Origin: Deltaproteobacteria bacterium
Lineage (GTDB): Bacteria > SAR324 > XYD2-FULL-50-16
Assembly (NCBI GenBank): GCA_029881655.1
Contig: JAOUME010000001.1
Location: 2,351 to 66,350, forward strand
Direction: 5' to 3'
DNA: 64,000 bases
In this document: piece by piece, positions 7,728-20,820 of the stretch
Position numbering within the stretch: the stretch's first letter is position 1
Layout of the letters: each line of letters starts with the position of its first letter
Program-made: the position numbers and the translations under genes
Notes under the pieces: model-generated
Seen by the model: only the letters and a program-made list of their open reading frames with translations
The model's database searches: none
Told to the model about the DNA's origin: nothing

Positions 7728-8783
7728 ATGTTGCCTAGTTTTTTCAAGAAAAAGACCCTGACGGGACTTTCCAGAACCTGCGGCTGAGCGGCAAAGATCA
7801 ATCCGACAGGTCTGTCGGAAGTCTTAAAAGTGCTAACAGCTTCGAATGATCCGAATCTGCTGATCGGCTTTGAAAACGCCGATGATGCCGCGGTCTACCG
7901 TTTAACCGATGAGATCGCCATGATTCATACTATTGACTTCATCACGCCGCCAGTGGATGATCCCTACTGGTTTGGTCAGATCGCCGCGGCCAATTCCATC
8001 TCGGATATCTATTCGATGGGTGGGATACCTCTGACCGCCTTGAACGTGGTGATGTTTCCCTCAAAGATCCTGGATATGGGTGTCCTTAAAGAAATCTTAA
8101 GAGGAGGCAACGACAAAGTGATTGAAGCGGGAGCGAGCCTTGTCGGGGGTCATTCCGTGGATGACGAGGAACCGAAATTCGGGCTTTGCGTCAATGGCAA
8201 GGTGCATCCTGAAAAAATATTAACCAACAAGGGAGCACAACCGGGCGATGCCTTAATCCTAACCAAACCGCTCGGAACCGGCGTTCTTTTCAATGCGGTC
8301 CGATCAAATAAATTCGATTTTAAGAACCTGGAATCTCTAATTCTTCCGAGTGTCGCGGCCTTGAACAAAAATGCGATTGAAGCTGCCCTCGACTATCCGA
8401 TCAACGCCTGCACGGACATCACGGGATTTGGAATCATTGGTCATTGCCTGGAAGTCGCCAAAGCTAGCGCTGTTGAGATCCGGCTTTCTTTTAATAGCCT
8501 TCCGATCTATCCCGGGGCACTCGAAATGTACCAAAAAGGCGAAACGACCGGTAGCAACAAGGGGAATAAAAAACTCAGCCAGGATTTTCTACGAATCCAG
8601 CGTAAAATTAAATCGCCTCAAAAAGAGATCCTCTTTGACCCCCAGACCTCGGGCGGTCTCCTTTTTTCCCTACCTGAATTAACAGCCCAAAAGCTACTTG
8701 AGTCCCTTCATCTAAAAGGGATTCATGATGCCCGTATCATCGGAAAAATCACTCAGGGATTACCCCAAATCATCATCGAGTAA
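7728..8783 (+). CDS. selD: Selenide, water dikinase (selenophosphate synthetase) containing selenocysteine. The in-frame TGA at 7785-7787 (codon 20) is read as Sec.
   Basis: Translation from ATG 7728 gives MLPSFFKKKTLTGLSRTCG-U-AAKINPTGLSEVLKVLTASNDPNLLIG. This aligns with E. coli SelD [23 protein letters not shown], with U at the position of catalytic Cys17. Downstream is typical SelD/PurM-like (DAAVY, AAANSISDIYSMGG). An SD-like aagaag precedes the ATG. Confidence 0.85.
7803..7818 (+). other. Bacterial SECIS-like hairpin (CCGACA-GGUC-UGUCGG) 16 nt downstream of the selD UGA.
   Basis: A 6-bp stem with a GGUC apical loop, identical to the E. coli fdhF SECIS apical loop. The loop begins at +25 from the UGA, against +22 in fdhF. 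Confidence 0.6.
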
Positions 8784-8890: not shown

Positions 8891-9976
8891 ATGTTATTTC
8901 AAAAACCCAACCGAGAGACCTTTGAAGCCCGTTATTGGGAAAGGGTAAAAGGCGATGAAATCATGTGCGGACTATGTCCGAGAGCCTGCAAGCTCAACGA
9001 GGGACAAAAGGGAAACTGTTTTGTACGTCAAAATCTGGGTGGACGGATGGTCCTGACCACCTATGGTAAAAGTAGCGGGTTTTGCATCGATCCCATCGAG
9101 AAAAAACCACTGAACCACTTTTACCCTGGAAGTTCGGTCTTATCGTTTGGAACCGCCGGCTGTAATCTAGCCTGCAAGTTCTGCCAAAACTGGGATATCA
9201 GCCGCTCCAAGGAGTTCGATCGTTTATCTGAGAACGCCTCCCCTTTGGCAATCGCCGAAGCTGCCGAAACACACAAATGCAAAAGCATCGCCCTAACCTA
9301 TAACGATCCAGTCATTTTTTTGGAATATGCCCGTGATGTTGCCTTTGAGTGCCGAAAAAAAAACATCCGGGTTGTCGCGGTCACAGCGGGTTACATTAAT
9401 CCAGAGCCCAGAAAAGAATTTTTCTCTTTTATCGATGCGGTTAACGTCGATCTTAAATCATTCACGAACCTTTTTTATAGAAAACTAACCGGCGGTAATC
9501 TAAAAACGGTTTTGGACACACTGCTCCATATCAGGGAAAAGACCAAGGCCTGGCTGGAGATCACCACCTTGATCATTCCCGGAGAAAACGACAGCCCCCA
9601 AGAACTGAAAAAGCTTACCAAATGGATTAATAAGGAGTTGGGAAAAGATACCCCGCTTCACTTTTCGGCCTTTCATCCTGACTACAAGATGACCGATCGA
9701 CCCAAAACCCCTCTTTCAAGCCTGATTTCAGCCCGGAAAATAGCCTTGGATGAAGGCTTAAGGTACATTTATACCGGCAATGTCTACTACGAAGCGGGGG
9801 ATACCACCTTCTGCCCCAACTGTGGAGAAAAACTCATTGAGCGTAGCTGGTACGAGTTGCCGGGATATTATCTCTCTGAAAGTGGTTCCTGCCGACAATG
9901 TGGTTTAAAGGTCCCCGGAATGTTCGATTCCCAGCCCGGCACATGGGGAAACCGCCGAAAACCAATCCGGATTTAG
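8891..9976 (+). CDS. Radical SAM enzyme, AmmeMemoRadiSam-system (AmrS)-like.
   Basis: N-terminal CGLCPRAC motif, a radical SAM CNLACKFCQN (Cx3Cx2C) cluster and a C-terminal Cys cluster (FCPNCGE, SCRQCG), as recalled for TIGR04337-type proteins. Confidence 0.55.
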   Translation: MLFQKPNRETFEARYWERVKGDEIMCGLCPRACKLNEGQKGNCFVRQNLGGRMVLTTYGKSSGFCIDPIEKKPLNHFYPGSSVLSFGTAGCNLACKFCQNWDISRSKEFDRLSENASPLAIAEAAETHKCKSIALTYNDPVIFLEYARDVAFECRKKNIRVVAVTAGYINPEPRKEFFSFIDAVNVDLKSFTNLFYRKLTGGNLKTVLDTLLHIREKTKAWLEITTLIIPGENDSPQELKKLTKWINKELGKDTPLHFSAFHPDYKMTDRPKTPLSSLISARKIALDEGLRYIYTGNVYYEAGDTTFCPNCGEKLIERSWYELPGYYLSESGSCRQCGLKVPGMFDSQPGTWGNRRKPIRI

Positions 9977-9988
9977 ATAGGGCTTTTA

Positions 9989-11668
9989 TTATCCGTGATA
10001 TCGGTTCAATGCGGAGACAACCGCTTTTGCCGAAGCGATAGCGATATGGGAGTCTTCCCCCGCGCCGAAAACAGCTTTGTTTTCTTCCAGCCCAATCCCG
10101 ATAAAAGCAACCGCCTTGGAGTCCGAACCTTCCTCAAGCGTGTGTTCTTCATAATGTATGAGTCGAAAATCAGCCAGACCGCTTTGGCTTAACCCTTTGA
10201 CGAAAGCGTCAATCGGACCGCTACCGGAAGACTGGATCTTTTGTCGCTTCCCTTTAACCCTTAAGGTCGCTCTGACTTGTACCTTGGGAGACTCGCCCCC
10301 TGTGTTTTCTTCAGTATACTCCCTGAAATCCAGCAATTCAAAAGGCTCTCTGCTTAAAAGATATTCCTTTTTGAAGCATTGGTAAATCTCTTCTGGTGCG
10401 ACTTCGCGCTTAACTGAATCCAGGTATCTTTGAAAAACCTCACCGAATTCGGGGCGCATACCTCTTGGAAGCCTTAAGCCGAAATCCCTTTCCAGCACAA
10501 AAGCGAAACCGCCTTTGCCTGATTGGGAATTGATCCGAATGACCTTTTCGTACTTCCGACCGATATCTCCCGGATCCAATGGCAAATAAGGCACTTCCCA
10601 AAGACCTGCCCCTTTTTCTTTCATCTCAGCCAATCCCTTGCTGATCGCATCCTGATGAGAACCGGAAAAAGCCGTAAAAACCAACTCTCCCGCATAAGGA
10701 TGTCGGGGATGCACTTTCATTTCGGTGGTATCTTCATAGATCTTGATCAATCGGTTTATATCATTAATTTTAAGATCCGGATCGATCCCTTGGGTTAAAA
10801 GATTCATGGCCATCGTAATAATGTCGACATTACCAGTTCTCTCTCCGTTTCCAAAAAGGGTTCCCTCGACCCGCTCGGCACCAGCCATCAACGCCAATTC
10901 AGCCGCCGCGACGGCAGTACCTCGGTCATTATGTGGATGGATACTGATGATAGCCTGATCCTTATTATTTAAGTGGCTTATAAACCACTCGATCTGATCG
11001 GCGTAGACATTAGGAGTCGACATTTCCACTGTTGCAGGCAGATTCAAAATCACTTTTTCCTGAGGTTTTGGGTCCCAGGCCTTAATAACCGACTCGCAAA
11101 TCTCAAGCGCGAAAGGCATTTCGGTACCCGTAAAGCTCTCGGGGCTGTATTGCAAAATAACTTCGGTTTCAGGGTTATTTCCTGACAACTCTTTGATATC
11201 TAAGACCCCTTTAACTGCAAGTTCTATCACTTCCTTTTTGCTTTTATTGAATACAACTTGTCTTTGAAGGGTCGATGTTGAATTATAAAGATGAAAGATA
11301 ACCCTTCTGGCGCCGGAAAAAGACGAAAAGCTTTTTTCGATCAAAGATCTTCTCGCCTGACATAAAATCTGCACCGTCACATCATCGGGAATTAAATTTT
11401 GGTCGATCAACTGCCTTAAAAATTCATTTTCCATCAGGGAGGCCGAGGGAAATCCCACCTCGATTTCATTAAATCCCAACTCCACAAGCACTTCAAACAT
11501 CGCTTTTTTTTTGACCACCGTCATCGGATTGACAAGTGCCTGGTTCCCGTCTCTTAAATCCACGCTGCACCAGATGGGTGTCTTTTCAATTAACTTTGAA
11601 GGCCATACCCGTTTTTTGATTTTCATTGGGGGGTAAGCTTTGTATTTATTTATGATTGGAACATTCAT
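9989..11668 (-). CDS. leuA: 2-isopropylmalate synthase (long LeuA type with regulatory domain).
   Basis: 559 aa. The N-terminus contains DLRDGNQ, EVGFPSAS and HPHNDRGTAVAAAE motifs. A strong SD (aaggagg) precedes the ATG. Confidence 0.85.
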   Translation of the reverse strand: MNVPIINKYKAYPPMKIKKRVWPSKLIEKTPIWCSVDLRDGNQALVNPMTVVKKKAMFEVLVELGFNEIEVGFPSASLMENEFLRQLIDQNLIPDDVTVQILCQARRSLIEKSFSSFSGARRVIFHLYNSTSTLQRQVVFNKSKKEVIELAVKGVLDIKELSGNNPETEVILQYSPESFTGTEMPFALEICESVIKAWDPKPQEKVILNLPATVEMSTPNVYADQIEWFISHLNNKDQAIISIHPHNDRGTAVAAAELALMAGAERVEGTLFGNGERTGNVDIITMAMNLLTQGIDPDLKINDINRLIKIYEDTTEMKVHPRHPYAGELVFTAFSGSHQDAISKGLAEMKEKGAGLWEVPYLPLDPGDIGRKYEKVIRINSQSGKGGFAFVLERDFGLRLPRGMRPEFGEVFQRYLDSVKREVAPEEIYQCFKKEYLLSREPFELLDFREYTEENTGGESPKVQVRATLRVKGKRQKIQSSGSGPIDAFVKGLSQSGLADFRLIHYEEHTLEEGSDSKAVAFIGIGLEENKAVFGAGEDSHIAIASAKAVVSALNRYHG

Positions 11669-11691
11669 TAACTCCTCCTTGGTTTTATAGA

Positions 11692-11731
11692 CAAAAAAAA
11701 GCCGTGGAATTTAATAATCCCACGGCTTTTT
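11692..11731 (-). terminator. Rho-independent terminator hairpin (GCCGUGG loop CCACGGC) with a U8 run, 25 nt upstream of the leuA SD. It reads as an attenuator terminator and is structurally bidirectional.
   Basis: A perfect 7-bp GC-rich stem at 11701-11707 / 11720-11726. An A-run on one side and a T-run on the other give a U-tract on both strands. Confidence 0.65.
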
Positions 11732-11742
11732 AAAAAACCATA

Positions 11743-11763
11743 CCCGCGGGACGAGCCCCGCGG
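11743..11763 (-). promoter_or_regulatory. GC-rich hairpin (CCGCGGG-ACGAG-CCCCGCGG) in the leuA leader. Its 3' arm can alternatively pair with the 5' arm of the terminator, giving an antiterminator.
   Basis: Sequence reading. The alternative pairing of cccgcggg with gccgtggg is 7 of 8 positions, including one G-U pair. Confidence 0.45.
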
Positions 11764-11790
11764 CAGTTAACAAAATAACTCAGCTCAGGC

Positions 11791-11877
11791 TCAAACCTTC
11801 AATAGTAGCAGTAGCAATCCTAGAGTGTGTCTTTTAGTCATTGTTTTTGGTTGATAGATTTTCCGATTGATTGTCAT
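11791..11877 (-). CDS. leuA leader peptide (28 aa) with six consecutive Leu codons: MTINRKIYQPKTMTKRHTLGLLLLLLKV.
   Basis: A minus-strand small ORF ending about 28 nt before the leader hairpins. It has 7 Leu in 8 residues, using CTA/CTG/TTG codons. This is analogous to E. coli leuL. A second ATG at 11841 would give a 16-aa version. Confidence 0.6.
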   Translation of the reverse strand: MTINRKIYQPKTMTKRHTLGLLLLLLKV

Positions 11878-12049
11878 GTTATTTATTGTAGTTTAACTAA
11901 AGCAATTGTCAATCCTAAACCAAGCCTCTAAATTCACCGTTGAAAAATTTCAGTCCGGTTTTAATTTAATTGGAACTGTCGCGATTTTGGATCGTCGTTT
12001 TTTCACGATTCAACAAACCTCTTTTCAAGGAGCATCAAAATAAGTATGG

Positions 12050-12502
12050 TTGAAATTTCAAGCCAACATCAAACGGCACTATTATGAATCAAAATCACTC
12101 TCAATTAATATGAATACTCCAGAAAACACCCAGGCAAACGATTTCCTAAAAAAAAATGCGCTTGACCCTGAAATAACCAAAACAGCATCAGGACTTCAGT
12201 TTAAAATCATCAAGGAAGGCACCGGCAAAACTCCAGATCAAAACAATATCGTTACGGTGCATTACATTGGAAAATTGGTCGATGGCACTGTAATCGACAG
12301 CAGTTATGACAAAGGGGCTCCCGCCACCTTCCCGGCCAACGGGGTTATCCCTGGCTGGCAGGAAGCTTTAGTAATGATGAGTGAGGGTAGCAAGTGGGAA
12401 ATTTTCATCCCACCATCTCTTGGCTACGGGGAAAGGGGTATCGGACCGATACCCCCTAACAGCACCTTGATCTTCGAAGTGGAACTCTTAGGAGTTAAAT
12501 AG
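12050..12502 (+). CDS. FKBP-type peptidyl-prolyl cis-trans isomerase.
   Basis: FKBP domain (VHYIGKLVDGTVIDSSYDKGAPATF, GWQEALVMMSEGSKWEIFIPPSLGYGERG). The start is ambiguous; candidates are TTG 12050, ATG 12046 (other frame) and ATG about 12110. Confidence 0.75.
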   Translation: MKFQANIKRHYYESKSLSINMNTPENTQANDFLKKNALDPEITKTASGLQFKIIKEGTGKTPDQNNIVTVHYIGKLVDGTVIDSSYDKGAPATFPANGVIPGWQEALVMMSEGSKWEIFIPPSLGYGERGIGPIPPNSTLIFEVELLGVK

Positions 12503-14249: not shown

Positions 14250-14963
14250 TTAACGGTAATAAACCTCCACCAAACCCTTGGGATTTGTCGTAAAAATAAA
14301 AAGCACCTCACCATTAACCGCTTTTTCGTATTGTTGATAAAGCTCCGGGGCTGTAATATGGTTTTCGTTGTGATACTCGCTTTCTTTGGTTTTATCGGAA
14401 TAGGTTAAAACCGAAAAGCTTTTGACCTTTCCCTGTTCATCTCTATCAATACCGGTTACCTCTAGGCTAGATAAAACCCCGTCTCTTCTTTTGGTTTCGA
14501 CAATCAGCCCTTTTTTAATAACCTGATGATTTACTTTTCTGGTTTTAGTGGTAAAAGTCTTTTCCGCGAAAGGTTCCGAAGATAGCAAGGCGACCTTTTT
14601 TCCTTCGGGTAGCCATTTCAATTCGTAACCCACCCCTTTCCAGGTAAACTTAATGCTGTCTTCCGTGCTGGTCAGTTTAAATGGAAGCGACTGAATCTTA
14701 ATGACCGGGAAATTGCCGGTTTTATGCATCTCCTGAAACTCGATGGTGAGGTTGGTATCCTTGGATGTAATGGTCTGGATGCTTCCCGGCGTCAATATCG
14801 CTTTTTTGGGACTCTCGAAAGTGACCTTATAAGATTTCCGCTCCGAAGAACCTGCTTTTTCATCCAGGATCTGCACATTCTGATTTTTTGCGAAGCCTAC
14901 CGATCCCGCAATAAAGAAAGAAAACAAACAAATTATTAAATATCGATTCATTTTTACTCCCAA
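14250..14963 (-). CDS. Hypothetical secreted protein.
   Basis: 237 aa with a signal-peptide-like N-terminus. No recognisable domain. Confidence 0.4.
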   Translation of the reverse strand: MGVKMNRYLIICLFSFFIAGSVGFAKNQNVQILDEKAGSSERKSYKVTFESPKKAILTPGSIQTITSKDTNLTIEFQEMHKTGNFPVIKIQSLPFKLTSTEDSIKFTWKGVGYELKWLPEGKKVALLSSEPFAEKTFTTKTRKVNHQVIKKGLIVETKRRDGVLSSLEVTGIDRDEQGKVKSFSVLTYSDKTKESEYHNENHITAPELYQQYEKAVNGEVLFIFTTNPKGLVEVYYR

Positions 14964-14969
14964 CGTTGA

Positions 14970-17027
14970 TTAGGTGACATTCGTTTTAAGTAGCTCCATT
15001 CCCCAGTTTGATAAAATAAGTTGACTATTTTCACGACAAACTAGCTGCTGTTTTAGTTCCATTTCTTTTAGGATTCGATCAAAAGGAAGATAAGGATTTT
15101 TTTCCTTAAGCTTCTCAAGGGAGTCATGATCATTAACGGCCTTTAAAATCGATTTTTCTAAAACAGCCAAAGGATTGTTTTGATCTTTTAAACGCCGCAT
15201 CAAAAACAAAATCAGAGTTTCATGAAGTCTGCCGAGTTTTCCTAAAAGTTCCTTCTTTCCCCTAAGATAAAGTGCCGATTTATCCTCGGTTCCCGAATTG
15301 CGGATAAAAACCGCCCCCTGGATCACGTTTTCTTTTAGAATCGAATAGTATACCAACGAACTCTCCTCTGTAAACTCCACTTGTTCAAAACGAAAAGGCC
15401 TAATGAAATCCTTTTGCAGCTCGCTTTCGATCAAGGCCAAAAGTTCCTTGCGGAAAAGACTTTTTGATTCCAACTGACTTTTATTGACATAATAAACATA
15501 AGCGGTTTTTTTTATCCCACATTCAAAAGGACTTCGTAGATTTTCGAAATACACCTTGATCGGCATATGCTGAGACAATTGTTTTACGGCTACCAGAGAA
15601 TTAAGCCCCGTCTTGATCCCATTGCCCGCATACAGGGCCAGAGCCCCTCCCTTGTCAGGATCAAACCCAGCGGTTATGCAGTGACCCGATTCTTCAAACC
15701 CTATTAGAAAGCGGGTTTCTCCTTTATTTATTTTAAACTGACGACTATTGAGATGCTCCTTTAGAAGTCCAGTAAGGACAAAACCGGACTGGTCCTGGTC
15801 CCGTTCCAATTCTTTCAGCCTTTCAAACAGGACCTTATCCCGAGTTTTATTTAAATCTAAGGACGCGTAAAAAGACTCCCTTACCGCTCTTAACAAAATC
15901 CACTTATCCCCCACACCAGTTAATAGAGGTTGATAGCCCTCTAGCTGAGCTGAAATCGCCGTATTTAAATCGCTTTCGACCGTATTAACGAAAAGTGATC
16001 GATCATTTTTAAAAAAAGCCCCCTGTCTTAAAAACCGGGCCTGATGAATTCCGAGCTTATCGCCCGAGGAGACTATGATATGCTTTTGAAACGGCTGGTA
16101 GTCCAGGCGAAAGCAGCGATCTCCGTCACCATCAAAGATCAAGCATATCAACTTTATATTCCCGGAACCCACACCCGGATCGTTATCAGCCTCTTGGAAA
16201 ATTCGACGAAGGGCCTCGTAAGATTCAAAGACAGATCCCATTTTTAAAACATCCTCTCTTTTTATCACCTCCCGGCCTTCTATGTCGGCAACTCCGCAGG
16301 ATTCGTTTATATTGCCCTCCAGGTTCAACAAGACCACTTTTTTAAAGAGATCTTTTCTAAAAATCGTCTCAGCCACGGCGGCGACCGCCCCCTTGGACGC
16401 GTCGATGATTAAAATCGTATCTAAAAACCCTTCACCCTGAATCCAAGAGTTTTCATCATCAAGACTCAATTTGATAAAATAATCTCTGGCCTCTTCCTTA
16501 AAATCAAGCCGGTCACCCTGAGGTGGCTTTTGATCAAGCGGTTCCTTTCTTAAAAATAGTATTTTTTCTGTCAGCTGTTGATCTTCATATGGCAAAAACT
16601 TCAAGCCTGAAAAACCGTGAAACAGCTTGATCCCGTTTTGATCCGAAGGGTTATGCGAAGCTGTCAAAACGACTGCGCCTACCGCTTCTTTTTTTAGCAT
16701 GAACAAAGGCATCGCCGGAGTTGGGAGCATCCCAGCCACCAGAACGTTTAAGCCAGCTTTTAATATGCCGTTAATAGCCGCCCGGTTAAATTCTCCCGAC
16801 TGATCCCGTGGATCCCACCCGATGACGACACCATCTCCTATCAATGCCGCTCTCTCCTTCAAAAGAAGCAGGGCGTAACAATAAGTATAAAGCTCGAAAA
16901 ATTCTGGGGTAAGAAGCCCCTCTTTTAAATAGAATTCGACCGGGTCCAAACCGTCGGCAATCGAATTTAAGGTGACCCTGCCACGAATCCCATCGGTGCC
17001 TTGCAACCTCTTTGGAAAGGATATCAT
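14970..17027 (-). CDS. Alpha-D-phosphohexomutase superfamily protein (phosphoglucomutase/phosphomannomutase-like), unusually long at 685 aa.
   Basis: All four family motifs are present: GTDGIRG, active-site TASHNP, metal-binding DGDGDR, and sugar-binding GFEESGH plus IRNSGTED. There are large insertions and an extra C-terminal tail of about 110 aa. Confidence 0.7.
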   Translation of the reverse strand: MISFPKRLQGTDGIRGRVTLNSIADGLDPVEFYLKEGLLTPEFFELYTYCYALLLLKERAALIGDGVVIGWDPRDQSGEFNRAAINGILKAGLNVLVAGMLPTPAMPLFMLKKEAVGAVVLTASHNPSDQNGIKLFHGFSGLKFLPYEDQQLTEKILFLRKEPLDQKPPQGDRLDFKEEARDYFIKLSLDDENSWIQGEGFLDTILIIDASKGAVAAVAETIFRKDLFKKVVLLNLEGNINESCGVADIEGREVIKREDVLKMGSVFESYEALRRIFQEADNDPGVGSGNIKLICLIFDGDGDRCFRLDYQPFQKHIIVSSGDKLGIHQARFLRQGAFFKNDRSLFVNTVESDLNTAISAQLEGYQPLLTGVGDKWILLRAVRESFYASLDLNKTRDKVLFERLKELERDQDQSGFVLTGLLKEHLNSRQFKINKGETRFLIGFEESGHCITAGFDPDKGGALALYAGNGIKTGLNSLVAVKQLSQHMPIKVYFENLRSPFECGIKKTAYVYYVNKSQLESKSLFRKELLALIESELQKDFIRPFRFEQVEFTEESSLVYYSILKENVIQGAVFIRNSGTEDKSALYLRGKKELLGKLGRLHETLILFLMRRLKDQNNPLAVLEKSILKAVNDHDSLEKLKEKNPYLPFDRILKEMELKQQLVCRENSQLILSNWGMELLKTNVT

Positions 17028-17280
17028 TTTACTTATTCAAATTCGGTTCGATACATGATCTTTATAAAAACACCTTTTGAATCATAGGTCTAAAATCCCG
17101 TTCCGTAAAGTAAGGGCTTATGGTTTTCTTATATTTTTTATTATTTTTCAAAACAGAGCCTAAAGTAATCATCCTTTTTCGGCTCGTACGAATCGACCCA
17201 ACTCCTTTTTCCACTTGAAAAACATCAATAAACGACCTAAGTTAATTATTTATAAAAGATCAATTATTTATTATACATCC

Positions 17281-18276
17281 ATGGCAAAAATTGCATTAAC
17301 GGGTATCAAACCCACGGGTAATCCTCATATAGGGAATCTGCTAGGCGCCATCAAGCCCGCCTTGAAAATCGCGGAAAAATATCACGCGCTATATTTCATC
17401 GCAGATTACCACGCCCTAACCTCGGTAAAAGACAAACAGGCACTTCACCAACAGATCTACGGAGTTGCGGCTACCTGGATCGCCGCAGGGTTAGACCCCG
17501 AAAAGGTCGTTTTTTACCGACAATCGGATATTCCCGAAGTATTTGAATTAAGTTGGATCTTGTCTTGTTTTACCCCTAAGGGGCTTCTAAACAGAGCCCA
17601 TTCATACAAAGCCGCGGTCGATAATAATCTCCAAAATCAAAACGACCCTGATATGGGTGTTAACATGGGTCATTACAACTATCCGATCCTGATGGCGGCC
17701 GACATCTTAATGTTTAACAGCAATGTTGTTCCTGTGGGACAAGATCAGCGGCAACACCTGGAAATGACCCGCGATATAGCTCACTGGTTCAATCAAAATT
17801 ACAAAAAAATTCTTGTCATACCAGAAGCTCTTATCCAAGATAATGTCAAAACCATTCCCGGGATCGACGGCAGAAAAATGAGCAAGAGTTATCATAATGA
17901 AATCCCGCTGTATGTCCCTTCAAAACAGCTCAAAAAAAAAGTGATGCAAATCGTCACCGACTCAAAGGAGGTCCACGAGCCTAAAGATCCCGAGAACTGC
18001 AATCTTTTTTCGATTTATAAGCTCTTTGCGGAAGAAAAGGAAATCCAGACTACCCACCAACAGTACCTGGATGGTGGTCTCGGTTACGGACAACTCAAAC
18101 AGGCTTTGTTTGAATTAATCGACACTTTCGTCAACGAAGGAAGAGAGCGTTACGATTACTATATGAACCATACCGAGTTGCTCGATCAAATCTTGCTTGA
18201 GGGTGCCTCAAAGGCTAGAAAAATAGCCACACCCCTTCTAAAAACCATCCGACAGACCATCGGAATCGAGAAATAA
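17281..18276 (+). CDS. trpS: Tryptophan--tRNA ligase.
   Basis: The class I motifs HIGN (GNPHIGNLLG) and KMSKS. The TrpS length is about 332 aa from ATG 17281. Confidence 0.85.
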   Translation: MAKIALTGIKPTGNPHIGNLLGAIKPALKIAEKYHALYFIADYHALTSVKDKQALHQQIYGVAATWIAAGLDPEKVVFYRQSDIPEVFELSWILSCFTPKGLLNRAHSYKAAVDNNLQNQNDPDMGVNMGHYNYPILMAADILMFNSNVVPVGQDQRQHLEMTRDIAHWFNQNYKKILVIPEALIQDNVKTIPGIDGRKMSKSYHNEIPLYVPSKQLKKKVMQIVTDSKEVHEPKDPENCNLFSIYKLFAEEKEIQTTHQQYLDGGLGYGQLKQALFELIDTFVNEGRERYDYYMNHTELLDQILLEGASKARKIATPLLKTIRQTIGIEK

Positions 18277-18291
18277 TTTCAAGGAGTTTCA

Positions 18292-18618
18292 ATGGGACTG
18301 TTACCGATAAAATCAACCAACAAAAGAGTTTACGGCGCTGAAATGATCATTGGCGGGGGAATTCTATTTGCCAGCAAATTTTTTTTAGGCGTACTGGCAC
18401 CCGCAGTACTTGGGATATATGGCCTTTACCGTTTGCTTTTCAAAAAAAGCTACCCCGATGGAATCATCAGCATTGCTCTTGGGGTTTTGCTCTATTTTGT
18501 CCTGAACACCTTTAGCATTTTGCTCTGGATTCCTTCGGTCATGGGTATCATGGCGATCATCTACGGGGCTATTTTGTTGTTTATGCCCAGAAAAGAAGAC
18601 ACCGAACCCGAGATTTAA
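18292..18618 (+). CDS. Small integral membrane protein, hypothetical.
   Basis: 108 aa with three predicted TM helices. Confidence 0.4.
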   Translation: MGLLPIKSTNKRVYGAEMIIGGGILFASKFFLGVLAPAVLGIYGLYRLLFKKSYPDGIISIALGVLLYFVLNTFSILLWIPSVMGIMAIIYGAILLFMPRKEDTEPEI

Positions 18619-18644
18619 TCAAAATCCCGTACTCACTAAATAAT

Positions 18645-19226
18645 ATGGCAATAGAAAACGATCTGATTAAATCCGCCTTGCTGGAAGCAAAAACCCTGCT
18701 GGATGACTTTATCGTTCCCGAGAACATCGAAAAGACGGCTGTATTTGCCCGAGAGGTCTTTGAGACAATCCAAAAGGGAAACAAGGTGATCACCTGCGGA
18801 AACGGCGGCAGCATGTGCGATGCGATGCATTTCGCCGAAGAGCTGACGGGCCGCTTTAGAGCTGACAGACCGGCCTATCCCGCCATCGCCATATCCGATC
18901 CTTCGCACATCACCTGTACGGGAAATGATTACGGCTTGGAGTTTATCTTTTCCCGCTACATTGAGGCTTTGGGAAATGAGGGGGATCTGCTAATAGGAAT
19001 TTCAACTTCGGGTAACTCTCTTAACATCTATAACGCTGTCAGAGCGGCCAAGGAAAAAGGTCTTAAAACTTCAGCTCTACTTGGAAAAGGTGGCGGTACT
19101 ATAGCGCAAATCGCCGATAATTCAATCGTGGTTCCAGGACAGACCAGCGACCGGATTCAGGAAATCCATATCAAAATTATCCATTCAACCATTGAGGCGG
19201 TCGAAAGACTCCTTGCCGATAATTAA
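18645..19226 (+). CDS. gmhA: D-sedoheptulose-7-phosphate isomerase (SIS domain).
   Basis: KVITCGNGGSMCDAMHFAEELTGRF and ISTSGNS motifs of GmhA. Confidence 0.8.
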   Translation: MAIENDLIKSALLEAKTLLDDFIVPENIEKTAVFAREVFETIQKGNKVITCGNGGSMCDAMHFAEELTGRFRADRPAYPAIAISDPSHITCTGNDYGLEFIFSRYIEALGNEGDLLIGISTSGNSLNIYNAVRAAKEKGLKTSALLGKGGGTIAQIADNSIVVPGQTSDRIQEIHIKIIHSTIEAVERLLADN

Positions 19227-19287
19227 AAGAGAGACTAATTATTAATCAACAACATCCGAATAATTAACCGCTATAAAACCTTATCCT

Positions 19288-20820
19288 ATGATCGTTATTT
19301 TAGACTTCGGGTCCCAATACACCCAACTGATCGCCAGAAGAATCAGAGAATTAAACGTCTATTGTGAAATCCAAACCTATAATTTCGCACTGGAAAAACT
19401 TAAGGATATGAAACCCGAAGGTATCATCTTGTCTGGGGGACCCAGTTCGACCGTCAGCGATATGGCCATCACCATTGATCCGGCTATTTTTGAGTTTGGG
19501 GTTCCAGTCCTTGGAATCTGTTACGGTTTTCAGCTGATGGTGTCGCTTCTAGGCGGAGAAGTCCAAAACTCAGATCACTCCGAATACGGCAAAACCAATA
19601 TCGAAATCCTTTCACAGGACCCTTTTTTCGACCATATCCCGGACCTTAAAAACCACACCGTTTGGATGAGTCACGGCGACCGGGTTCAGTCTTTGCCCAA
19701 AGATTTTAAAATTCTGGCCAAAAGCGAGAACTCTCCTTTTTGCGCGATTTATGAACCAAAAAGGAAACTGTATGGTATCCAGTTTCATCCGGAGGTTTCC
19801 CATACCGATCAGGGCACTCAAATTTTAAGCAATTTCGTCTTTAAAATCTGCGAAGCGAAATCAAACTGGAATATGGCATCCTTTCTGGAGACTAAAACCG
19901 CAGAGATCAAACAGCAGGTAGGCGACCAAAAGGTCCTTTGCGCCTTAAGCGGTGGGGTGGATTCATCGGTGGTGGCAGTGCTACTACACAAGGCGATCGG
20001 CGATAACCTGATTTGCATCTTTGTCGATAACGGACTCTTAAGAAAAAATGAAGCCGAAAAAGTCGTACGAGTTTACCGGGAAAACTACCACATCAACCTG
20101 ATCCATATCCAAGCGCAAGATCTTTTTTTAGATAAACTCAAGGGCATTACCAACCCTGAGGAAAAAAGGAAAATCATCGGCTATGAATTTATCCGGCTTT
20201 TCGAAAAAGAAGCCAAAAAACTTGAGGATGTTCCATTTTTGGCACAGGGGACCCTTTATCCCGATGTGATCGAATCGGTTTCTTTTAAAGGACCATCCGC
20301 CGTCATCAAATCCCATCATAATGTCGGTGGGCTACCAGAAAACATGAAAATGGAATTAGTCGAGCCATTAAGAGAACTTTTTAAGGACGAGGTTCGCGAA
20401 CTAGGAAAAACGCTGGGGATGCCCGATGAAATCATACACCGCCACCCCTTCCCAGGACCGGGTCTTGGTGTCAGAATTTTAGGCGATATCGACCTAGAAA
20501 AAATCCAGACACTCCAAGAGGCCGATGCGATCGTCCTTGAAGAGATCAAAAAGGCGGGTTGGTATAATAAAGTCTGGCAGGCGTTCGCGGTCCTGCTGCC
20601 AGTTAAATCCGTTGGTGTTATGGGGGATAACCGAACTTACGAATGGACAGTCGCGATCCGTTGCGTCAATTCATTGGATGCCATGACTGCCGATTGGACG
20701 AGACTGCCTTATGAGCTTTTAGGGAGAATATCTAACCGGATCATTAACGAAGTAAAAAGAGTCAACCGGGTAACCTACGATATTACATCGAAGCCCCCGG
20801 GTACCATCGAATGGGAATAA
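19288..20820 (+). CDS. guaA: GMP synthase (glutamine-hydrolysing).
   Basis: An N-terminal GATase (GICYGFQLM), the ATP-PPase SGGVDSSV motif and the conserved C-terminal dimerisation domain. 510 aa. Confidence 0.9.

Follow-up and report, generated by a model that had tools for sequence, protein, structure and literature searches.

A putative leucine leader-peptide attenuator precedes a stand-alone leuA gene in a SAR324-like deltaproteobacterial genome

The 64,000-nucleotide (nt) stretch analysed here, hereafter the window, comes from contig JAOUME010000001.1 (positions 2,351 to 66,350) of assembly GCA_029881655.1, a metagenome-assembled genome (MAG) of an uncultured deltaproteobacterium of the SAR324 lineage. 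On its minus strand lies leuA, coding for a 2-isopropylmalate synthase, and directly before this gene a putative promoter, a short open reading frame (ORF) containing several leucine codons in succession, a hairpin and an intrinsic terminator follow one another in that order within 190 nt (Table 1). We consider it quite probable that this locus is a ribosome-mediated, leucine-responsive leader-peptide transcription attenuator controlling leuA. A preliminary description made from the sequence had proposed such an attenuator and had called leuA monocistronic, which the gene arrangement bears out. The gene for an AmmeMemoRadiSam radical SAM enzyme located downstream (8891-9976) is convergent with leuA, the gene for an FKBP-type isomerase located upstream (12050-12502) is divergent from it, and no other branched-chain amino acid gene was found near leuA in the gene annotation of the window. 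Because leuA stands alone between convergent and divergent neighbours, the terminator serves no other gene. The promoter-like site is the sole one on the minus strand of the leuA-FKBP intergenic region to match at least 9 of the 12 consensus positions, and its geometry predicts a transcription start at about 11879-11877. From 11885 to 11669, a consensus scan of the minus strand detected no promoter-like site. Given that no upstream gene lies on this strand, that only 24 nt separate the terminator from the leuA ATG and that no promoter-like site intervenes, leuA expression would require readthrough of the terminator. A low-GC lineage had been presented at first; the window has a GC content of 40-46%, which is only moderately low.

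Table 1. Features of the leuA leader region and of leuA, in window coordinates.
Feature	Position	Strand	Support or remark
Putative sigma-70-type promoter: TTGACA 11912-11907, 16-nt spacer, TACAAT 11890-11885	11912-11885	minus	11/12 consensus, consensus match only
Leader ORF, 28 codons plus stop, MTINRKIYQPKTMTKRHTLGLLLLLLKV	11877..11791	minus	ORF translation
Regulatory Leu codons: CTA (codon 19), GGA Gly (codon 20), TTG CTA CTG CTA CTA TTG (codons 21-26)	11823-11800	minus	
Relay strand GAGCCU, which shares the final two bases of the UGA stop codon (11793-11791)	11792-11787	minus	constrained folding
Small hairpin AGUUA-UUUUGU-UAACU, inside the relay helix	11780-11765	minus	present in minimum free energy structures
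Hairpin 1 (anti-antiterminator): CCGCGGG, loop GCUCGU, CCCGCGG; -14.2 kcal/mol	11763-11744	minus	
Antiterminator: GUCCCGCGG 11752-11744 with CCGUGGGAU 11725-11717; 9 bp, 18-nt loop, -14.6 kcal/mol	11752-11717	minus	
Intrinsic terminator: A5 + GCCGUGGGAUU (11731-11716), loop AUUA, AAUUCCACGGC + U5 (11711-11696), U8 11700-11693	11731-11693	minus	
leuA Shine-Dalgarno sequence AAGGAGG	11680-11674	minus	5 nt before ATG
leuA, 2-isopropylmalate synthase, 559 aa, long 'leuA_yeast' type	11668..9989	minus	NF002991 797 bits, TIGR00970 699 bits

The peptide encoded by the leader ORF ends in LGLLLLLLKV. Its six consecutive Leu codons occupy positions 11817-11800, and a seventh, CTA, is found at codon 19. 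When the 381-nt intergenic region was shuffled, a Leu run of at least six was reached in 3 of 20,000 shuffles; among all six frames of the 64-kb window, such a run is unique to the leader ORF. The preliminary description had pointed to this ORF, to its Leu run and to the rare codon CTA within it, all of which are present: no Leu codon is rarer than CTA in the 49 long ORFs of the window (175 of 1,972 Leu codons, 8.9%), and CTA accounts for four of the seven Leu codons of the leader (P=0.0017 against window usage). A rare-codon bias is the source of sensitivity in classical leaders, and there is no reason to expect one unless the codons are read. Translation could start at ATG 11877 or at an alternative in-frame ATG at 11841, which follows an A-rich stretch and would yield a 16-aa peptide (MTKRHTLGLLLLLLKV) with the same Leu run; the model is unaffected by the choice of start. 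From the promoter geometry, the first AUG is predicted to be leaderless or to be preceded by a 5' untranslated region of 1-3 nt.

Helix energies, minimum free energy (MFE) structures and pairing probabilities reported here are equilibrium folding predictions. The leader as a whole folds more stably than its shuffles (z=-2.5). The Rho-independent terminator with eight U residues that had been noticed before leuA is a 16-bp stem of -21.6 kcal/mol, its arms reading in full AAAAAGCCGUGGGAUU-AUUA-AAUUCCACGGCUUUUU (11731-11696, minus strand). Some of the distances first given required correction: the U-tract ends 12 nt and not 25 nt before the Shine-Dalgarno (SD) sequence (24 nt before the leuA ATG), and the hairpin said to lie 28 nt past the leader stop codon, hairpin 1, is indeed there, at 27 nt. 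The 7-bp antiterminator proposed between the 3' arm of hairpin 1 and the 5' arm of the terminator is real and extends to 9 bp. It is mutually exclusive with both hairpin 1 and the terminator, and forms part of the MFE fold predicted for the nascent transcript. The energies of antiterminator and terminator resemble those of the corresponding helices of classical attenuators. Absent from the preliminary description was another helix, here termed the relay helix, in which GAGCCU at the end of the leader ORF pairs with GGGCUC (11758-11753), that is, with the end of the 5' arm and the loop of hairpin 1; together with the small hairpin that it encloses, it amounts to -15.2 kcal/mol. Such a relay is needed since 39 nt separate hairpin 1 from the last Leu codon upstream of it, and a ribosome stalled 40-60 nt upstream cannot open that hairpin directly. 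Hairpin 1 is itself followed by GUAUGGUUUUUU (11743-11732, minus strand), whose U-run begins 6 nt past the stem, and was flagged as terminator-like by a consensus scan. It may, speculatively, act with GUAUGGUUUUUU as a pause site or as a weak first terminator of a tandem pair, the spacing being like that of hairpin-dependent pause sites.

The predicted balance between these folds depends on where the ribosome stands. The ribosome was modelled as a mask with a footprint of +13 nt on a nascent RNA running from the 5' end to 11714, before the 3' arm of the terminator exists. With the A site at codons 19-24, the relay strand remains free, the computed probability of the antiterminator is 0.70-0.94 and that of hairpin 1 is low. 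With the A site at codon 25 and onwards, including the stop codon, the relay strand is covered, the antiterminator falls to 0.00-0.04 and hairpin 1 rises to 0.95-0.99; hairpin 1 forms with a probability of at least 0.95 once the relay strand is masked. Between the stalled and stop-codon states, the MFE structures are 3.8-4.5 kcal/mol apart, and this position dependence is stable across footprints of +10 to +16 nt. Prediction of the mutually exclusive foldings, which the preliminary description had suggested as a check, thus returned the expected terminator and antiterminator pair, with a predicted equilibrium balance that depends on ribosome position. In the full-length leader, hairpin 1 and the terminator are preferred (P=0.98) at every ribosome position and the antiterminator was never seen. 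This is normal for attenuators and says little, because the decision precedes synthesis of the 3' arm of the terminator. When transcription was scanned stepwise with a Leu-stalled ribosome, the relay helix formed first, and the terminator prevailed from an RNA end of about 11703. The switch was measured by energy. An alternative statistic, the pairing of the 5' arm of the terminator with anything, was discarded as a poor discriminator, inflated by spurious long-range pairing and by a weak U/A-rich hairpin. After shuffling the spacer (11790-11732), an equal or larger energy switch was obtained in 25 of 600 cases, and a stalled-state sequestration as strong as the original in 9 of 600.

Leucine-run leaders recur before distant genes of the same type. 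Our comparative set consisted of 78 loci from many phyla bearing this leuA type, with LeuA proteins 51-58% identical to that of the window, in which we sought ATG-initiated upstream ORFs (uORFs) of 8-60 codons with at least three consecutive Leu codons within 300 nt upstream of leuA. Such uORFs were found in 41 of the 78 loci. As controls, the opposite strand gave 2, shuffled sequences gave 2.3 +/- 1.4, and runs of any other amino acid occurred in no more than 4. At the loci of the four closest LeuA homologues retrieved (L087-L090), leuA also stands alone, divergent from ilvBN, and is preceded in each case by a Leu uORF and a terminator similar to that of the window, made of an A-run, a GC stem and a U-run.

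One large subgroup of such leaders forms a family, situated some 100 nt upstream of leuA and present in Desulfobulbaceae, Nitrospirota, Thermodesulfovibrionales, Ca. Electronema and a Planctomycetales MAG (L002-L030, L039, L051 and L087-L090, and also L005, L015, L017, L023, L024, L054, L072, L016 and L026). Its uORFs end in (S/T)VA(D/E)xxGL before the stop codon, and its terminators combine an A-run and a U-run. Twenty leaders of the Desulfobulbaceae/Nitrospirota type were aligned (alignment A1) and used to build a covariance model, R1. Across A1, an in-ORF CCGUGGC pairs with the terminator 5' arm GCCACGG in 98.5% of cells and the terminator arms pair in 97.2%, while slid controls reach at most 56%. 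The antiterminator moreover shows covariation at the central position that also varies in the terminator (U-A, C-G or U-G versus A-U or G-C). This is good evidence, drawn from the aligned sequences, that the leaders of this family are real attenuators. Members not used for training match R1 over its full length (positions 1-106) with 24-76 bits, in Thermodesulfovibrionales, Nitrospirota, Ca. Electronema and the Planctomycetales MAG; L088 scores 94 bits and nearly duplicates the training sequence L087. A search of 19 related loci yielded no Rfam family at gathering score for these leaders.

The best match of R1 in the 64-kb window is the leuA terminator (22.5 bits, E about 0.001), and it covers model positions 59-106, the terminator half, only. 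A full-length match would take in the in-ORF CCGUGGC, the GGAGG-GUUGUAG stop region and the spacer as well as the terminator, and we therefore rejected membership of the window leader in the R1 family; it is analogous to this family and at most distantly related to it. Like R1-type leaders, which occur in Desulfobulbaceae, Nitrospirota and related MAGs with LeuA proteins 51-58% identical to that of the window, it combines a stand-alone leuA, a Leu-run uORF, a terminator in which a GCCRYGG stem stands between an A-run and a U-run and whose end lies 20-60 nt from leuA, and an antiterminator strand complementary to the 5' arm. In R1-type leaders that strand, CCGUGGC, lies within the uORF about 20 nt before the stop codon and is covered directly by the ribosome, whereas in the window the uORF ends two codons past the Leu run and the antiterminator strand sits 39 nt beyond the stop, in an extra hairpin reached through the relay helix. 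A further group of leaders was observed 100-140 nt before leuA in GC-rich proteobacteria (Steroidobacteraceae and others; L041, L056, L064, L065, L070, L076). They end in LALLL(L)RR before the stop codon and share a CGGUCGGCGC..ACAAGACCGG motif, often without an obvious U-tract terminator. These are of another design and do not share the layout of the window leader.

The ORF, its Leu run, the hairpins, their complementarities and the order of the genes can be read from the sequence itself, while the response of the fold to ribosome position comes from computation. Taken together, we propose the following mechanism. Transcription would begin at about 11878, from the TTGACA-16-TACAAT promoter, and translation would start nearly at the 5' end of the transcript, at the leaderless AUG 11877, or at the in-frame AUG 11841. 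When charged tRNA-Leu is plentiful, the ribosome would clear the seven Leu codons, arrive at the UGA codon and mask GAGCCU; hairpin 1 would then form and sequester the antiterminator strand, the terminator with its U8 would fold, and transcription would end 24 nt before leuA. If charged tRNA-Leu runs short, the ribosome would stall early in the Leu run, at the CUA-rich codons 19-24, leaving GAGCCU exposed to pair with GGGCUC inside hairpin 1. The disruption of hairpin 1 would release GUCCCGCGG, which would pair with CCGUGGGAU in the 5' arm of the terminator; the antiterminator would block the terminator, and RNA polymerase would continue into leuA. That the relay helix is the specific step of this switch is a more tentative proposal, derived from modelling, which may well be right but which we would not favour outright.

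Several points weigh against this attenuator. Promoter use, translation of the ORF, ribosome stalling and persistence of the relay helix during transcription are all steps that we infer, and for the first two this counts against the proposal. Neither ATG 11877 nor ATG 11841 is preceded by an SD sequence, though the genome is SD-poor: of all window ORFs of at least 120 aa, just 9 of 49 show an SD-like 4-mer at -20 to -4. SD-independent initiation being the rule in these ORFs, an SD-less leader ORF is normal here. The start regions of most window ORFs are A/T-rich, and leuA, with AAGGAGG, belongs to the small number of genes whose SD is strong. The 5' arm of the terminator is also involved in a competing but weak hairpin, UAUGGUUUU/AAAGCCGUG (-6.1 kcal/mol). 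Without a ribosome the two states are predicted at about 50:50, unlike the trp-type rule in which no translation means termination. In the stepwise scan with a stalled ribosome, hairpin 1 is the equilibrium structure for RNA ends 11744-11721, and relay helix plus antiterminator are favoured only for RNA ends 11717-11708. As the antiterminated state is favoured only briefly, the outcome of the switch depends on folding kinetics, which makes the relay step the weak point. The shuffle controls on the switch are modestly significant (about 0.04-0.05), supportive and not overwhelming.

Conservation is likewise of little help to the proposed attenuator. Among 5.8 billion proteins, the search for close relatives of the window LeuA returned only its own contig (100%), the next protein being 58% identical, and an exact look-up of the protein revealed no further contig; the nearest homologues lie in Desulfobulbaceae and Brevinematia. 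The window GuaA (19288-20820) is identical to a protein listed at NCBI under 'MAG: Deltaproteobacteria bacterium'. Its next relatives, at 68-72% identity, include MAGs of the SAR324 cluster and of 'Candidatus Lambdaproteobacteria', and in three SAR324-like relatives (GuaA 70-72% identical) leuA was not found within +/-10 kb of guaA. The latter observation would agree with an acquisition or relocation of leuA in the window lineage. In loci L081, L083 and L085, compared with window positions 14250-20820, the order of the PGM/PMM, class-I tRNA synthetase, SIS-domain and guaA genes is kept, and leuA and the adjoining FKBP gene are missing.

A rival explanation is a real terminator whose readthrough is set by a protein, by a small RNA or by constitutive leakiness, the Leu-run ORF being untranslated or irrelevant. 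Such control would fit the lack of an SD sequence at either ATG, the hairpin 1 and terminator fold of the full-length leader at any ribosome position, and the narrow range over which the antiterminated state is favoured. Mutants of the Streptomyces leuA and ilvB leaders also misfit classical attenuation, according to work cited in PMC1262725. We nevertheless hold this explanation to be improbable. Six consecutive Leu codons behind an in-frame ATG, before a leucine gene, are rare in shuffles; their rare-codon bias makes sense only if they are read; runs of Leu, and of no other amino acid, recur in the distant loci; and a missing SD is uninformative in a genome that rarely uses one.

Control could alternatively be translational, as in the actinobacterial LEU element, with the Leu-codon region pairing with the leuA SD, possibly in a pseudoknot, and with uORF translation opening this structure. 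The actinobacterial element precedes the same long leuA type (PMC1262725); in the window, the MFE structure of a 217-nt RNA does pair GGAGU of the SD region with ACUCU, which immediately precedes the Leu run, and by inspection the relay helix and the outer pairs of hairpin 1 would have the topology of an H-type pseudoknot. Pairing of the Leu region with the SD region is however worth -7.8 kcal/mol, which 197 of 300 shuffled SD regions equalled or bettered, and the long-range pairing is negligible in the ensemble (MFE frequency 0.0002). A strong terminator with U8 furthermore stands between both regions, while LEU elements lack one (PMC1262725). On these grounds we rejected the LEU-type pairing and regard this explanation as very improbable. 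Equally improbable, in our view, is that the 28-codon ORF, together with its own terminator, constitutes a separate gene for a small protein or for a small RNA, and that leuA is expressed on its own. Promoter, short ORF and strong terminator would indeed make a self-contained unit of about 185 nt. Against this, the U-tract ends just 24 nt before the leuA ATG, leuA would be left promoterless by the lack of any minus-strand promoter-like site between 11885 and 11669, a Leu run with a high share of one rare codon is the dominant part of the peptide, as in leader peptides, and the 5' arm of the terminator has a 9-bp alternative partner.

Rfam searches returned no match to Leu_leader (RF00512) or to the Leu/phe leader of Lactococcus at E<=10 in 11400-12200, none at E<=0.5 in 11660-11900, and nothing at gathering score in the whole window. 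Sub-threshold matches (trpB motif, caiA, Termite-leu, L10 leader, RsaE and others) were dismissed, as they aligned to the generic terminator only; the one to Termite-leu RNA (RF01730) scored 21.8 bits over the terminator against a gathering score of 51 bits, and was gone in a narrower search. A T-box or another riboswitch sensing uncharged tRNA-Leu or a metabolite has next to no likelihood, for although a leader of about 190 nt would be long enough and the ilv-leu operons of Firmicutes use T-boxes, neither T-box (RF00230) nor any riboswitch family was detected at E<=10 in the leader or at gathering score in the window, and the sub-threshold matches cover the generic terminator hairpin only.

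In Escherichia coli, leuL makes use of the rare Leu codon CUA. The leuL-type ribosome-stalling architecture first attributed to the window leader is supported as far as attenuation is concerned, the in-silico tests being in agreement with it; it was incomplete without the relay helix, and it does not extend to homology with leuL, since RF00512 has no match at E<=10. As read here, the locus works like a leuL-type attenuator, yet lies outside every catalogued RNA family. It shares with leuL of the leuABCD operon of E. coli and Salmonella a short ORF with consecutive Leu codons, mostly rare CUA, an intrinsic terminator right before leuA, an alternative antiterminator using the 5' arm of that terminator, and, as predicted, a multi-helix relay without direct contact between ribosome and antiterminator, following the his/leu logic of enterobacteria. 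It differs from leuL by the lack of detectable sequence or structure homology (no Rfam match at E<=10), by controlling a single leuA, of the long 'yeast/actinobacterial' type, instead of leuABCD, and by a leader ORF without SD, perhaps leaderless, with six to seven Leu codons versus the four consecutive Leu codons on which the E. coli leuL mechanism relies (PMC5314783).

The locus had also been presented as notable for a Leu leader before a monocistronic leuA; such leaders are in fact documented in Corynebacterium glutamicum (PMC4046766) and are frequent among the 78 loci. The leader peptide cgb_03035 of C. glutamicum leuA (cg0303) was detected by RNA sequencing and read as an attenuator (PMC4046766, PMC3890552). 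As in the window, a stand-alone leuA of the long type follows a small ORF with consecutive Leu codons, but the phylum is another, sequence similarity would not be expected, and the C. glutamicum leader has four Leu codons. For the actinobacterial LEU element, the model is a pseudoknot upstream of leuA that has its Leu codons paired to the SD and shows no clear terminator (PMC1262725), whereas the window has a canonical terminator and the pairing between Leu codons and SD is unsupported. Outside Proteobacteria, Leu-rich uORFs with a terminator/antiterminator switch before leucine-biosynthesis genes are furthermore known from the new LeuA leaders of streptococci, reported with PASIFIC, and from the attenuator peptide of the Staphylococcus aureus ilv-leu operon (PMC5314783, PMC5794164). 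These resemble the window leader in that respect and differ in belonging to Firmicutes operons, with other leuA types and contexts.

Leader-peptide attenuation of leuA is already established in E. coli and streptococci (PMC5314783) and known otherwise, including stand-alone leuA with a Leu leader as in Corynebacterium, and the locus leaves the current understanding of attenuation unchanged. If confirmed, it would be a well-formed example from a SAR324-like 'Deltaproteobacteria' MAG, uncultured, in which most genes have no SD sequence, and would show the mechanism to operate even where the leader is translated independently of an SD and possibly from a leaderless start. We predict that leuA expression would track leucyl-tRNA charging in this organism. 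Perhaps more useful than the single locus is the occurrence of Leu-run uORFs before about half of the long-type leuA genes of many phyla, one large subgroup of which is a covarying leader family without an Rfam model. A broader reading has three parts: that the window attenuator evolved independently, with a leaderless, SD-less peptide that ends immediately past the Leu run, and with a relay helix disabling at a distance both hairpin 1 with GUAUGGUUUUUU and the main terminator; that long-type leuA genes repeatedly gain or re-invent Leu-uORF attenuators while moving between phyla; and that the R1-type leader is a distinct, uncatalogued RNA family. All three holding jointly strikes us as rather doubtful.

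For annotation, the 28-codon leader gene and the attenuator are to be added, and the start of leuA is to be placed at 11668 and not at an internal Met. The public gene call for the window LeuA (P0001, 545 aa) begins at internal Met15 (11627-11668 region). The SD sequence 5 nt upstream of ATG 11668, together with homologue alignments extending over query residues 1-556, supports the 559-aa form. Elsewhere in the window, on the plus strand, the gene for SelD (selenide, water dikinase; 7728-8783) seems to begin at ATG 7728 and contains an in-frame TGA at 7785-7787, within MLPSFFKKKTLTGLSRTCG[TGA]AAKINPTGLSEVLKV. This TGA falls at the catalytic Cys/Sec position, and for the program-called ORF (7830-8783) the match to the SelD profile began only at position 33; the window SelD is thus, judging by its sequence, probably itself a selenoprotein.

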